NCBI GenBank assembly: GCA_963702005.1
Contig: OY969696.1
Span: forward strand, 1,184,001-1,248,000
Length of the DNA stretch: 64,000 bases
DNA from: Candidatus Aminicenantes bacterium
Lineage (GTDB): Bacteria > Acidobacteriota > Aminicenantia > Aminicenantales > JAFGBC01
Direction of reading: 5' to 3'
Positions 34,793-39,016 of the stretch are shown one piece after another; the stretch's first letter is position 1; the number at the start of each line of letters is the position of its first letter. Under the pieces are notes generated by a model that did no database searches, was not told the origin of the DNA, and worked only from the letters and a program-made list of their open reading frames with translations. A program made the translations under genes and the position numbers.

Positions 34793-37024
34793 TTGAGCGT
34801 CGCTTGCCCGAATTGCCGCGCCGAGAACGATCCCGGCTCCAGGTTCTGCCGGATGTGCGCGGCCTCGCTCGAGCCGGGAGGGGGCGTTCCCGCGGCCACC
34901 CAGTCCATTCACCCCCCGGCCCATGATCCCGCCCGGGGAACGCTGTTCGCCGGAAAATACGTCGTCGTCAAAGAGCTGGGGCGAGGCGGGATGGGGATCG
35001 TCTACGAGGCCGAGCAGCAGAATCCCAAGCGGGCGGTCGCCCTCAAGGTCATCCGGGGCGGGACCCTCGTCACCGAGACGACGGTCAAGATGTTCCAACG
35101 CGAGGCCCAGACGCTGGCCCGGCTCAAGCATCCCAACATCGCGGCCATCTATGAATCCGGCCGGACCAAGGACGGCCGCCATTATTTCGCGATGGAGCTC
35201 GTCCGCGGCGAGATCCTGACCGGATACCTGACTCGCCGGGGCGAATCCGGTAAGCTCTCGCCCGACGAGGTCCGCTTCCGGCTCCGGCTCTTCCGCAAGA
35301 TCTGCGACGCCGTGAACTACGCCCATCAGCGCAGTATCATCCACCGCGACCTCAAACCCTCCAACATCATCGTTCTTTCCTTGCCGGGCCCGGCCGGCGC
35401 CGGCCCCGGAGACGTTCCCGAGATCAAGGTCCTCGATTTCGGACTGGCCCGGATGACGGACACCGACCTGGCCGCGAGCGCCATGGTGACTGAGGCGGGC
35501 CAGGTGTTCGGAACGTTCCCCTACATGAGCCCCGAGCAGGTCCGCGGGAACCCGGACGAGATTGACGTCCGCTCCGACGTCTATTCGCTCGGCGTTGTCC
35601 TCTATGAAATGCTGACCGGCGTCCTGCCCTACGACCTGACCCGGGCGTCGCTGCCGACCATGGCCCGGACGATCGTCGAGGAGCCGCCCCGGTCGCTCGC
35701 CAAGAGCTGGCGGGGCGCCCGGAAACCGGACGACGACATCCAGACCATCGTCGCCAAGGCCCTCGAAAAGGAGCCGGCGCGCCGCTACCAGAGCGCGGGC
35801 GCCCTATCCGAGGACGTGGAACGCTATCTCCAAAAGCAGCCGATCTTGGCCCGACCGCCGAGCGGACTCTACCAGCTTCAGAAGCTCGTCTCGCGTCACA
35901 AGATCGGATTCGGGTTTGCGATTGCCTTCCTTGTCCTCCTGGCGGGTTTCGCCCTGACCATGACGGTCCTCGAGGCCAGGATCGCGAGGGAGCGGACCCG
36001 GGCTGAGAAGGAAGCCGCCAAAGCCAAAGCAATCAACGAATTTCTCCTGGAGACGATGGGCTCGGCCAACCCGGTTGAAGGCGCCGGCCGCGACACGACC
36101 GTCCTGGAGGCGCTCAAGACTGCGGCCGAGAAGATCGCGCCGGCCTTCCCCGGACAGCCCAAGGTCGAGGCCGACCTGAGGCACAGCATTGGCATGACTT
36201 ACCTGAGGCTGGGACGCTACCGAGAGGCGGAGGATCTCCTCCAATCCGCCTGCCGGATCCTGGAAGAGAAGTTCGGTCCCGAATTCCCGGACCTCGCCTC
36301 CCCGCTGACGACGCTCGGCGTCCTGAAGCACGAACGGGGCGAATATGCGGAGGCCGAGTCCCTGTACCGGAGGGCGCTGGCCATCGCGCGCCGAACCCGC
36401 AAAGACGAGGACCCGAACGTCCTGAGTATTCTCAACAACCTGGCCCTTGTCCTCCAGGACCAAGGCAAGCTTGACGAGGCGGAGCCTCTCGTCCGGCGGA
36501 TCCTGGAGATAGACCGTAAGCTCCTGGGCTCCGAGGACGTCAATGTCGGCGTGGACCTCAACAACCTGGGAAACCTTCTCCTCAAAAAAGGAGACTTCAA
36601 GGAAGCCGAACCGTTTCTGCGCGAGGGCGCGGGCGTTCTCGATAAAAAAGGACATCCCTGGCGGTCCTTCGCCCAAGGCAATCTGGCCGATCTCCTCAGC
36701 CGGAAGGGCGAGAACGAGGCGGCCGAAGCGATATTCGCCAAGGCCCTTCCGGCCGCCCTCAAGGACTTCGGCGAAGACAACCAGGACCTCGCGAAGTTCC
36801 GGACGAAATACGGCGCCTGCTTGATCAACCTCGGCCGGCACGGCGAGGCGGAAAAGCAATTGCTGGCCGCGCTCCCCGTCTTCGAGACGAGCCTGGGCGG
36901 CAAGGACGAATGGACCCAGCGGACGATCCGGGAACTCGTCCGCCTCTATAAGGCCTGGGGCAAGGATGGGGAAGCGCTTAAGTATAAGAACCTCTTGGAG
37001 CCGGCCTCAGGGCCGCCGAAATAA
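34793..37024 (+). CDS. Ser/Thr protein kinase with zinc ribbon, TM and kinesin-light-chain-type TPRs
   Basis: CPNC..FCRMC; GRGGMG, HRDLKPSN, DFG, 'GTFPYMSPEQ'; 'LNNLA..L.DQGK.DEAE' repeats. Confidence 0.93.
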   Translation: MSVACPNCRAENDPGSRFCRMCAASLEPGGGVPAATQSIHPPAHDPARGTLFAGKYVVVKELGRGGMGIVYEAEQQNPKRAVALKVIRGGTLVTETTVKMFQREAQTLARLKHPNIAAIYESGRTKDGRHYFAMELVRGEILTGYLTRRGESGKLSPDEVRFRLRLFRKICDAVNYAHQRSIIHRDLKPSNIIVLSLPGPAGAGPGDVPEIKVLDFGLARMTDTDLAASAMVTEAGQVFGTFPYMSPEQVRGNPDEIDVRSDVYSLGVVLYEMLTGVLPYDLTRASLPTMARTIVEEPPRSLAKSWRGARKPDDDIQTIVAKALEKEPARRYQSAGALSEDVERYLQKQPILARPPSGLYQLQKLVSRHKIGFGFAIAFLVLLAGFALTMTVLEARIARERTRAEKEAAKAKAINEFLLETMGSANPVEGAGRDTTVLEALKTAAEKIAPAFPGQPKVEADLRHSIGMTYLRLGRYREAEDLLQSACRILEEKFGPEFPDLASPLTTLGVLKHERGEYAEAESLYRRALAIARRTRKDEDPNVLSILNNLALVLQDQGKLDEAEPLVRRILEIDRKLLGSEDVNVGVDLNNLGNLLLKKGDFKEAEPFLREGAGVLDKKGHPWRSFAQGNLADLLSRKGENEAAEAIFAKALPAALKDFGEDNQDLAKFRTKYGACLINLGRHGEAEKQLLAALPVFETSLGGKDEWTQRTIRELVRLYKAWGKDGEALKYKNLLEPASGPPK

Positions 37025-37051
37025 ATCAACTTCAATCAGCCGGGAGCATCG

Positions 37052-39016
37052 GTGGTACGAGGTCAAACGGTTTCAAAATCGAGAGCGGGGCGGCTCCTGA
37101 TCATCGTCCTGGGCGTGATAGTCCTCGGCCCGGTTGCCGAGCGAATGATCGGCGCAGCTTCCCTCTGGACGCCGTCCGGTCCATACGGCGGCGACGTCCG
37201 GGGCCTGGCCGCCGGCCGCGACGGACGGGAGTTTTTTGCGATCACGGCAGGAATTCCCGGGCAGGTCTACCGGTCCTCAAGCCCCGCGGCCCCTTGGCGC
37301 CGCGCGGCCTACCTTCCCGAGGCGCTCTATGACATCGGCTGCGATCCGCTTCATCCGGCCGTCGTCTTCGTCCTCGGAACGACGGCCCTGTTCCGGTCCC
37401 GGGATCTGGGTTCGACCTGGATGCGATGCCCCCTGCCGGCCGGATGTTCGGCCGAGCAGGGCCGGCTCGCCGTCCATCCCGATAATCCCAAGGTTCTCTG
37501 GGCGGCCGGGCGGATGAAGAGAAACGACGGTAAGGAGTCCTTTATCGTCCTGAGATCGGCGGACACGGGCGGGACCTGGACGGCCGCGATTCTTCCGGCG
37601 TTCCTTACCGGACAGAAAACCTGCTGCCTGGCCGTCAGCCCGTCCGACCCGAATCTCCTTTTCGCCGGCGGCGATTTGGACGGTGTGGATCGCGAAAGCC
37701 GCCTGTTCCGGAGCGGGGACGGAGGCCGCCACTGGACCGACGTCACCGGACCGATCGCTTCTCCGCCCCTGGCCCTCGCCGTTCATCCTCTCGATTCCTA
37801 CCGGGCCTATATCGCGACGGCCAAAGGCATTTACCTGAGCCGTGACCAAGGGCGTAGCTGGCGTCAGGCCGGGGGGAAAGCCTTCGGGACCGCGCTGGCC
37901 ATGGATCCGGCCCGGCCGCGGACCATCCGCGCGGGCGCCGACAGGCGTGTCTTCACGAGCCTGGACGGCGGAGAGCGCTGGACGGAATGTTCCGCCGGCC
38001 TGTTCGGGACCTGCCGCCGGATCGTCCTTGCGGCGGACCGGATTTTCTTCGCCTCCTCGGCGGGTATCTTCCGCAGCGATGACGGCGGGGCGAGCTGGGA
38101 CGAGCGAAACAGCGGGTTGGCGGCGGCTCAAGTCATTTCGCTCGGGATGTCTCCTTCCCGGCCCCTTATCCTCTACGCCGGGATCAGGGGGAACGGTCTT
38201 TTCAAGACCGCCGACGGCGCCGCCTCTTGGGAACGGCTGCCGGGATTTTATCGCGCGGAGATCGTGATCCGGATTGTCGTCGACCCCGCGGATGCCGCCC
38301 GGCTCTTCGTCCTGACCGGAGGCTGAGGGCCGGACGACATCTACAGGTCTGTGGATGGAGGCCGTAGCTGGGACAAATTGTTTCACGGAAATATGGAGGA
38401 TCTGGTCTTGAATCCGGGCCGGCCCGGCCATCTTCTGGCCGCCGGCCAAATCCAGGAAAAAATAGTATTGGTCCCGGTCGTGTTCCAGTCCAAGGACGGC
38501 GGCGCGACCTGGTCCTGGCATCGGCTTTCGACCGAAGCCGGCGTCGCCAGCGCGGTGGCCTGCGATCCTTCGAACGACCGGATCCTGTTTGCGGGCGGCC
38601 TGGCGGGAGAAAAAACGGTCTTGGTCAGGTCCGGCGACGGCGGGGAGACCTGGACGGACATCACGGGCGGGGTGACCGGCCGAGTCCTTTTCTTGCGCGC
38701 GGACGAGAGGACGGCGGGGCGGATCTGGGCCGGCACGGATTCGGGATTATTCCGCAGCGATAATGCGGGCTCGACCTGGACCCGGCTGTCCTCGTTCGCG
38801 GCGAGATGCGTCCTGGTTGATCCCGCGAACTCGCGGCGCTTGTTCGCGGCGGGAGCGGCCGGCGTTTGGACGAGCCGCGACGGGGGAACGACCTGGCAGC
38901 GGATGAACGGGGGACTCTCGGTCCGGGACGTGAATTGCCTCGGCCGCGAAGTCCGTTCGGACACTCTCTACGCGGGAACGGAGGGCGGCGGCCTCTGCAA
39001 GCGTATTCACAATTAA
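37052..39016 (+). CDS. Secreted BNR/Asp-box (VPS10/YCF48-like) beta-propeller protein, probably one 654-aa selenoprotein with Sec at codon 425
   Basis: ORFs 37052-38326 and 38351-39016 share a frame and are separated only by TGA 38324-38326; readthrough gives ...LFVLTGG-U-GPDDIYRSVDGGRSW, completing an Asp-box; SECIS-like hairpin directly 3'. The BNR call is firm; Sec decoding is inferred. Confidence 0.8.
38327..38363 (+). promoter_or_regulatory. Bacterial SECIS element
   Basis: UGA, 11 nt, then CAUCUACA-GGUC-UGUGGAUG (8-bp stem, 38338-38357); the apex CAGGUCUG matches the E. coli fdhF SECIS; possible lower GGCC/GGCC helix. Confidence 0.75.

Follow-up and report, generated by a model that had tools for sequence, protein, structure and literature searches.

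Two open reading frames (ORFs) in a 64,000-nt stretch of a Candidatus Aminicenantes genome (contig OY969696.1, positions 1,184,001 to 1,248,000; hereafter the window) very probably form one real, selected gene in which an in-frame UGA encodes selenocysteine (Sec) as residue 425. ORF1 (37052-38326, 424 aa, GTG start) and ORF2 (38351-39016, 221 aa) lie in the same frame, and the TGA at 38324-38326 is all that divides them. Read through with TGA as Sec (U), they yield a protein of 654 aa containing ...RLFVLTGG-U-GPDDIYRSVDGGRSW.... Eleven nucleotides after the UGA begins a hairpin, CAUCUACA[GGUC]UGUGGAUG (38338-38357), with an 8-bp stem and a tetraloop, which we regard as the selenocysteine insertion sequence (SECIS). 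The GTG annotated as the start of ORF2 (38351) encodes the Val of the Asp-box S-V-D-G-G; it lies inside the hairpin and lacks a Shine-Dalgarno (SD) sequence. An earlier note on this DNA had described the shared frame, the readthrough product, the hairpin with its GGUC loop and the GTG in the middle of the Asp-box without a clear SD, and all of these hold up. The explanation that we favour for the locus as a whole is one gene for an exported selenoprotein, decoded in the standard way, with a GH74-like fold and with Sec as a reactive residue, and we consider it likely.

To judge from the sequence, the standard bacterial mechanism would apply: the hairpin with its GGUC loop would recruit SelB-GTP-Sec-tRNA(Sec), with the anticodon UCA, to the ribosome, and UGA425 would then be read as Sec and not as a stop. 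The hairpin 20-mer has a minimum free energy (MFE) of -7.9 kcal/mol. The model of bacterial SECIS elements (bSECIS) in the legend of Fig. 2 of PMC13188914 describes loops of 3-9 nt on stems of 4-16 bp with a G in the first two loop positions, 16-37 nt between UGA and loop, and an MFE of at most -7.5 kcal/mol. Four constraints of the model as worded in that legend were compared, and the window hairpin agrees with all four: a loop of 4 nt that opens with two G and then U closes a stem of 8 bp, and the loop lies 19 nt from the UGA (22 or 25 nt in some relatives). An Rfam scan of 38200-38500 at E ≤ 10 returned no bacterial SECIS family, only a chance match to a microRNA.

The fdhF gene of E. coli K-12 reads UGA-CACGGCCCAUCGGUUGCAGGUCUGCACC, and its apex CAGGUCUG is identical to that of the window hairpin. 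GGUC starts 18 nt after the UGA in fdhF and 19 nt after it here, so that the GU is indeed one nucleotide further from the UGA, as had been pointed out earlier. Like fdhF and other bacterial genes with a SECIS in the coding region, the window gene combines an in-frame UGA and a following stem-loop with selA, selB, selC and selD in the genome and with Cys homologs. The stem is a perfect 8-bp helix here, whereas it is bulged in fdhF. Unlike in known bacterial selenoprotein genes, the product is not an oxidoreductase of known fold, the hairpin sits in a structural repeat motif (the Asp-box) and constrains two amino acids, and a single genome contains 14 paralogs of the family. The genome also encodes a thioredoxin-like selenoprotein (UGSC), whose gene carries CUGCUG[GGUC]AGCAG 12 nt after its UGA; because the GGUC loop is shared with this gene, the SelB of this organism seems to read GGUC loops.

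The UGA codon and its hairpin in paralogs and relatives

The window gene does not stand alone: it belongs to a set of 14 Sec-bearing paralogs. A search of its genome (G000, 4.31 Mb in one contig) with the readthrough protein gave 53 matching places, 14 of them with exactly one in-frame TGA. All 14 TGAs fall into one alignment column, always with Gly before them. The hairpin, (C)RUCUACA[GGUC]UGUAGAY(G), lies 11 or 14 nt past the TGA and is near-identical across the 14 paralogs, although the proteins are only 30-38% identical. The sequence ACAGGTCTGT occurs 13 times in the 4.3-Mb genome, 11 times after a TGA of the family. A strict scan of the same genome for TGA followed by a GGTC-loop hairpin, which is not a census of the selenoproteome, recovered the family and no other bona fide selenoprotein.

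The earlier note had made its case depend on selA, selB, selC and selD, and all four are found. They lie in a cluster at 765451-770102 with the order selA-selD-selB-tRNA-Sec (selA 561.7 bits, selD 364.6 bits, selB 255-288 bits; tRNA-Sec 73.8 bits, anticodon UCA). Seven of the 14 Sec paralogs flank this cluster within 15 kb, at 756159-764586, 772893-774809 and 780804-782687. The alternative that an ordinary tRNA (Trp, Cys or Arg) reads the UGA with help from the hairpin, or that TGA is a sense codon, would do without selenocysteine. It can point to an assignment of Sec drawn from sequence comparison and to a single decayed copy with TGG. We nevertheless think it very improbable. Six family genes terminate with an ordinary TGA, which is therefore not generally a sense codon, and there is one internal TGA per gene. 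The GGUC loop is that of E. coli fdhF and of the UGSC gene in the same genome, family genes are clustered around a complete Sec operon, and the replacement in close full-length homologs is Cys.

The region 756159-782687 (L150, L151) can be described as a 'selenium island', with five tandem paralogs beside the sel cluster and then two more. These last two bracket three exported TlpA-like genes and one Fer4_5 membrane Fe-S gene; one of the TlpA-like genes is fused to DUF6029 and one encodes a CarboxypepD_reg lipoprotein.

The hairpin is written in the Asp-box codons V/I-Y-R-S-V-D (I-Y-R-S-V-D in the window copy). Among the x-x-R-S-x-D motifs of the family, Arg-Ser is encoded by AGG TCT in 11 of 11 SECIS blades but in only 1 of 59 other blades, which puts the codon preference claimed in the earlier note on a quantitative footing. 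Complete pairing of the seven inner stem positions is seen in 11 of 11 SECIS blades but in none of the 59 others. Covariation was assessed on 21 distinct hairpins taken from homologs found by protein similarity, in the same genome, in the same-genus G001 and in G111, G139 and G146, which belong to other families of the same order. Across these hairpins 98.8% of the cells are paired. In 5 of the 21 a G-C pair has become A-U (Val GUC and Asp GAC versus Ile AUC and Asp GAU), and in 2 an A-U pair has become U-A (Tyr UAC and Val GUA versus Phe UUC and Glu GAA), both amino acids switching together. The covariation score, with two covarying pairs, was reached by none of 500 shuffles, and slid controls pair at 15-54%. 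The conserved hairpin with compensatory changes foreseen earlier is thus present, and it is under selection as RNA. Tyr431 and Val434 are 89% conserved in Sec forms as against 20% and 8% in non-Sec homologs, which means that the RNA constrains the protein. Pairing would fix the codons (AGG UCU) as well as the amino acids Tyr and Val, or Phe and Glu in one subfamily, a clean natural example of an RNA signal that dictates protein sequence.

The same hairpin sequence of 20-22 nt also arises by codon chance in BNR Asp-boxes without an upstream TGA (L054, L129, L045), in Roseivirgaceae, one metagenome contig and one metagenome-assembled genome (MAG) of Pseudomonadota. These chance hairpins indicate that the Asp-box consensus is close to a SECIS. 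A corollary of the speculative picture of a new selenoenzyme class, set out below, would be that the Asp-box x-Y-R-S-x-D can be written as a perfect GGUC-loop SECIS and that BNR propellers are unusually prone to gain Sec.

An exact-pattern scan of one genome per species gave 10 matches. In eight of them the protein context is the same and an in-frame TGA lies 5-7 codons upstream; three 'Candidatus Aminicenantes' MAGs account for seven of these and a Zixiibacteriota MAG for the eighth. The remaining two are ordinary Asp-boxes without TGA. The metagenome scan, for which one stem pair of the pattern was left free (W...W), found 78 loci, 73 of them with an in-frame TGA 5-7 codons upstream. In all 73 the free pair is complementary (66 A/U, 7 U/A), and both cases of a non-complementary A/A belong to the five matches that have no TGA. 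The outer pair of these 73 Sec forms is G-C in 49, A-U in 21, G-U in 2 and A-C in 1, and Gly always precedes U. Since such pattern scans are biased to the canonical stem by design, only the free positions are taken as evidence. A class-wide search in a sample of 201 genomes, with six candidates scored per genome, revealed Sec forms in at least five genomes; they occur in three further families and their spread is patchy. In all four other Sec-form genomes tested selA is present, in G111 about 5 kb from the gene. One homolog with two TGAs (L039, in G016) was rejected as a Sec form, as it has no hairpin and looks frameshifted.

Contigs from the wetland-metagenome runs X1, X2 and X4, which belong to three studies, span 38324-38357 with TGA and hairpin unchanged. 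There are strain-level differences elsewhere in these contigs, for example 23 in 1401 nt (X1), and none in the TGA or the hairpin. Synonymous and non-synonymous differences stand at 16:8 upstream of the TGA and 11:5 downstream, so both halves are under the same purifying selection in this frame. The TGA is thus almost certainly genuine, and the read error that the earlier note had allowed for can be set aside. No RNA run was listed as containing the gene. Some contigs of X1 and X4 match only the SECIS and Asp-box (window 38333-38361 and 38489-38512) and then diverge, one reading ...GGGGCTGAGCGGGC before the match; they stem from paralogs or relatives that are present in the same samples and align to the conserved hairpin.

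The idea of a pseudogene, with ORF1 and ORF2 as remnants left by a nonsense mutation or created by a sequencing error, is effectively refuted already and deserves practically no credence. In its favour, ORF1 appears in the public gene calls as a separate 424-aa protein (P0002), one paralog has truly decayed and another is split in two. A broken gene is at odds with the common TGA column and hairpin of the 14 paralogs and of the metagenome (73 of 78) and genome (8 of 10) matches, with a TGA retained in three studies and flanked by equal purifying selection, and with the codon bias and covariation of the hairpin. The decayed paralog (1976698-1978576 of the genome) has TGG (Trp) at the Sec position and a frameshift about five codons upstream; its Arg-Ser is encoded by AGA AGT and the hairpin is gone, Sec and SECIS having been lost together. 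The other, Sec-bearing paralog (756159-758157) changes frame between query residues 280 and 287, through either a frameshift or an assembly error, and has kept TGA and hairpin intact.

At E ≤ 1e-10 the protein has 3455 homologs, of about 650 aa and named 'photosystem II stability/assembly factor-like' or 'WD40/YVTN/BNR-like'. Forms with Cys or Ser in place of Sec were found by an exhaustive search with a 139-position profile of the Sec region, which put long multi-repeat proteins first, and by re-alignment of the domains. P0211 (679 aa; ...LLVAGG-C-GYDEVYRSGDGGKTVK..., or in a shorter excerpt ...LLVAGG-C-GYDEVYRSGDGG...) shares 32% identity with the window protein across 633 aa (E 2e-104) and represents the full-length Cys form of subfamily 2077105. 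P0228 (...FLARG-C-GDADVYRSADGAQTRKNILHK..., shorter excerpt ...FLARG-C-GDADVYRSADGA...) is the full-length Cys form of the 872145 subfamily, and P0182 (...LAGN-S-GKDNVYRSVDGG...) is a Ser form; in all three the loop is as long as in the Sec forms. Paralogs of the same length in the window's own genome have Ser (3451957, 3032208) or Cys (2125550) at the column. Homologs with TGA or Cys at this place, which the earlier note had proposed to look for, therefore exist; Ser occurs in some, and TGG only in the one decayed, frameshifted copy.

The full-length Cys and Ser homologs with their uninterrupted frame also argue against a role of the UGA as a regulated terminator. Such a terminator would produce a protein of 424 aa, alone or alongside one of 221 aa that has its own start, or would permit the selenium-dependent switch between isoforms of 424 and 654 aa that the earlier note had considered. 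Sec decoding in bacteria is generally inefficient, and some truncated product is to be expected. A stop after residue 424, however, falls inside blade 9 of a 14-blade double propeller, and the GTG of ORF2 lies in the hairpin and within the Asp-box, with no SD to serve it. The isoform switch is unsupported, and termination in any of these forms is highly improbable.

A predicted GH74-like double propeller

Pfam finds Sortilin-Vps10 (1.6e-31; 110 bits, cut-off 33), PSII_BNR (Ycf48) and BNR domains in the protein. In NCBIfam, P0001 scored 194.1 bits (cut-off 175) against NF045728, 'F510_1955 family glycosylhydrolase', through six stretches of a 246-position repeat-like model whose name carries an untested function; no selenoprotein model was hit. 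The models and names of NF045728 and Pfam are silent on Sec, and most of the non-Sec homologs are without the G-U-x-x-x loop insertion. An AlphaFold2 model based on a 65-sequence alignment (pLDDT 92.7, pTM 0.89) shows about 14 four-stranded blades. The top Foldseek matches are GH74 xyloglucanases (2cn3, 5fkt, 4lgn and 1sqj; E 2e-29 to 1e-26, TMq 0.64-0.67), and the family profile matches GH74 at E 1e-50 to 1e-59. Model and fold search thus bear out the double propeller that had been postulated before. GH74 enzymes are described in PMC2716378 as tandem seven-bladed Asp-box propellers.

The window protein shares this architecture with the GH74 xyloglucanases and OXG-RCBH (2cn3, 1sqj, 2ebs, 5fkt, 4lgn), and its Sec aligns to the loop of the catalytic Asp465; it is about 80-120 residues shorter and has no carbohydrate-binding module. 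Positions 35-606 of the profile align in register with OXG-RCBH chain 14-672, although the alignment was made on a repetitive protein. The wild-type structure 1sqj and the D465N structure 2ebs differ at SGIG[D/N]ISGMKHDD, which stands opposite VLTGG-U-GPDDIYRSVDGG. Asp465 aligns with G424/U425, and Sec425 would accordingly be placed at Asp465 or within one residue of it. Asp35 and Asp465 we take to be the catalytic pair of OXG-RCBH, the D465N mutant being named in the title of 2ebs. The position of Asp35 (ARTD-IGG) is occupied by G, S or Y in the family and by Asp in 7 of 54 members; together with Sec at the position of Asp465 this leaves a GH74 scaffold without the acid/base pair. An assignment as a GH74 enzyme was rejected, since the catalytic Asp pair is missing. 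Within blade 9, Sec lies in the loop that joins strands B and C. In GH74, Asp465 faces the cleft between the two propellers, and Sec is predicted from strand order and the profile alignment to be exposed there in the same way.

Possible roles of the selenocysteine

Sec would be a reactive residue, redox or nucleophilic, of an extracytoplasmic enzyme. Export of the protein is predicted from its N-terminal helix and from the paralogs, which start with typical signal-peptide-like N-termini. At the alignment column of residue 402 (F-Y-R-x), which lies 23 residues ahead of Sec, 42 of 54 distinct full-length Sec forms have Cys and 8 have Ser, and Ala stands in the window protein only. In subfamilies without Cys at this column, Cys is found in nearby W-T-T-C-G or E-C-R/G-C-Q loops. 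The 'lone Sec' of the earlier note is thus an apt description of the window copy, with its Ala, and not of the family. Strands 404-410 and 418-423 of the model are neighbouring and antiparallel. Residues 402 and 425 are therefore expected at adjacent strand ends on the same face, with the registry extrapolated from strand order. In most members a selenylsulfide may form between Sec and the Cys on the neighbouring strand end; the window copy, which lacks that Cys, may rely on an external thiol. Sec might be reduced again by exported TlpA-like thioredoxin-fold proteins and membrane Fe-S proteins encoded nearby. A scan of neighbouring genes, which covered 63 of 100 flanking ORFs at 41 loci and omitted short or overlapping ORFs and those of a locus without a TGA form, found at 8 of the 41 loci that an exported thioredoxin-fold protein (DFWATWCVPC/WCGPC-type), a protein with DsbD_N or a membrane Fe-S protein with Fer4_5 is encoded no more than 2 kb away, a count that stands without a formal background control.

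The missing control for this count is one of several points that weigh against our explanation. The window copy has no partner Cys, and several paralogs and homologs of the same length carry Ser, which is incapable of redox chemistry. In 119 homologs the Sec column contains G in 31, a gap in 30, T in 12, A in 10 and C in only 3; among 388 aligned domains it has C in 18 and S in 15. Of 89 non-Sec homologs, 83 show a gap in place of G-U-x-x-x, and Sec lies in an insertion of 3-5 residues particular to this subfamily. As regards the RNA, the fold of the 71-nt context (-25.1 kcal/mol) is unexceptional compared with shuffles (z = -1.6), so that this single fold proves little alone. The hairpin also has no counterpart of the bulged U that is important in the fdhF minihelix of E. 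coli. In two paralogs (3598420-3600348 and 762652-764586) the Asp-box reads Y-S-S-V-D, which gives a GUUC loop instead of GGUC, and one of these has an A-C mismatch at the closing pair; given these two, not every copy need be decoded well.

The main rival accepts Sec as real and denies it a part in redox catalysis. Sec would then be a soft ligand for metals or chalcogens (Cu, Hg, As, polysulfide, selenium), or a nucleophile interchangeable with Ser or Cys in a binding or hydrolytic propeller. The Ser forms (3451957, 3032208 and P0182) and the Cys-less window copy favour such a role, as do a fold shared with carbohydrate-active enzymes and sortilin-type binders and a closest NCBIfam model that is named glycosylhydrolase. 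The GH74 catalytic Asp pair is missing, however, and Cys at -23 in 42 of 54 members, together with the recurring thiol-disulfide reductase genes in the neighbourhood, fits a redox cycle better. A non-redox role is on balance unlikely, if a serious possibility. The redox version of our explanation, a Sec or Sec-Cys centre in the cleft that is kept reduced by an extracytoplasmic thiol pathway, is put forward tentatively, at somewhat less than even odds. Going further, one might envisage a new class of extracytoplasmic selenoenzymes, in which a GH74-type cleft has been rebuilt round Sec, together with Cys, at the old catalytic-Asp position, electrons arrive by a dedicated trans-envelope pathway of TlpA-like and Fe-S proteins, and the family has diversified into 14 paralogs per genome so as to reduce a range of substrates outside the cell, polymers or chalcogens, in anoxic sediments. 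This larger picture is speculative and we regard it as doubtful.

Novelty, gene layout and surroundings

The 2026 review PMC13188914 compiles 119 prokaryotic selenoprotein families, and its Table 1 has no propeller, BNR, Ycf48, sortilin or GH74/glycosyl entry among them; a search of the review's text for these terms also came back empty. No such family term occurs in the text and four supplementary files of the deep-Sep paper, and a 2022 review is likewise silent. Literature searches at the level of listings, with subscription journals outside their coverage, found no description of the family. As far as this catalogue of 119 families extends, the family is thus new, in line with the earlier note, whose author knew of no description. 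Among the exported non-thioredoxin selenoproteins in PMC13188914 are an FCYXU-type TonB-dependent receptor, a GSU2204/MtrB-type barrel and a UshA-like protein. As presented there, they resemble the window protein in being extracytoplasmic with a single Sec, and differ from it in fold and motif.

The decoding itself follows the textbook. The novelty lies in the protein family and in four of its traits: a GH74-like fold, the placement of Sec where the catalytic Asp used to be, a SECIS within an Asp-box and the 14-fold expansion around the sel operon. The bacterial selenoproteome would gain a large exported family without the thioredoxin fold, one that gene callers systematically cut in two, as the public 424-aa record of ORF1 illustrates. 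With 14 Sec copies, seven of them around the sel operon, the family probably accounts for much of the selenium demand of the lineage. Sec also marks a probable active residue, at the GH74 catalytic-Asp position, in the huge uncharacterised group of '~650-aa BNR/Ycf48-like' proteins and so offers a handle for biochemistry. The features of the gene are listed in Table 1.

Table 1. Features of the putative selenoprotein gene; positions refer to the window
Feature	Position	Strand	Basis
Shine-Dalgarno-like GGGAG, 5 nt before the GTG at 37052	37042..37046	+	read from the sequence
Probable single 654-aa selenoprotein gene, GTG start, TAA stop at 39014-39016; GH74-like double seven-bladed Asp-box propeller	37052..39016	+	translation, Pfam, AlphaFold2, Foldseek
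Hydrophobic helix near the N-terminus (residues 12-32), preceded by a basic stretch; probably a signal peptide or signal anchor	37085..37147	+	helix 12-32 of the model
Codon of Ala402; family column with Cys in 42 of 54 (candidate Sec partner), lost here	38255..38257	+	family alignment
UGA, very probably selenocysteine, residue 425; Gly always before	38324..38326	+	paralogs, metagenomic forms, independent contigs
SECIS hairpin: 5' arm 38338-38345, loop GGUC 38346-38349, 3' arm 38350-38357	38338..38357	+	fold, covariation, codon bias, shared loop
Asp-box S-V-D-G-G-R-S-W; first codons form hairpin loop and 3' arm	38348..38371	+	sequence, translation

The genes downstream of the selenoprotein gene encode DUF498, SpoU methylase and Memo-like proteins, and a functional link to the selenoprotein is not obvious. 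Upstream, on the same strand, a gene for a Ser/Thr protein kinase of 743 aa (34793-37024), which has a zinc ribbon at its N-terminus as well as TPR repeats, ends 27 nt before the start of the selenoprotein gene. Elsewhere, DUF7948/SBBP beta-propeller genes adjoin members of the 'LESG-U-TKFF/VFRSEDGG' subfamily, whose hairpin is the Phe/Glu version (L067, L075, L076, L105, L117, L122 and L135; in the window's own genome at 783411-785498). Two paralogs of the selenium island (780804, L024, and 772893, L031) and their orthologs in G001 continue past the second propeller for about 170-200 aa at the C-terminus.

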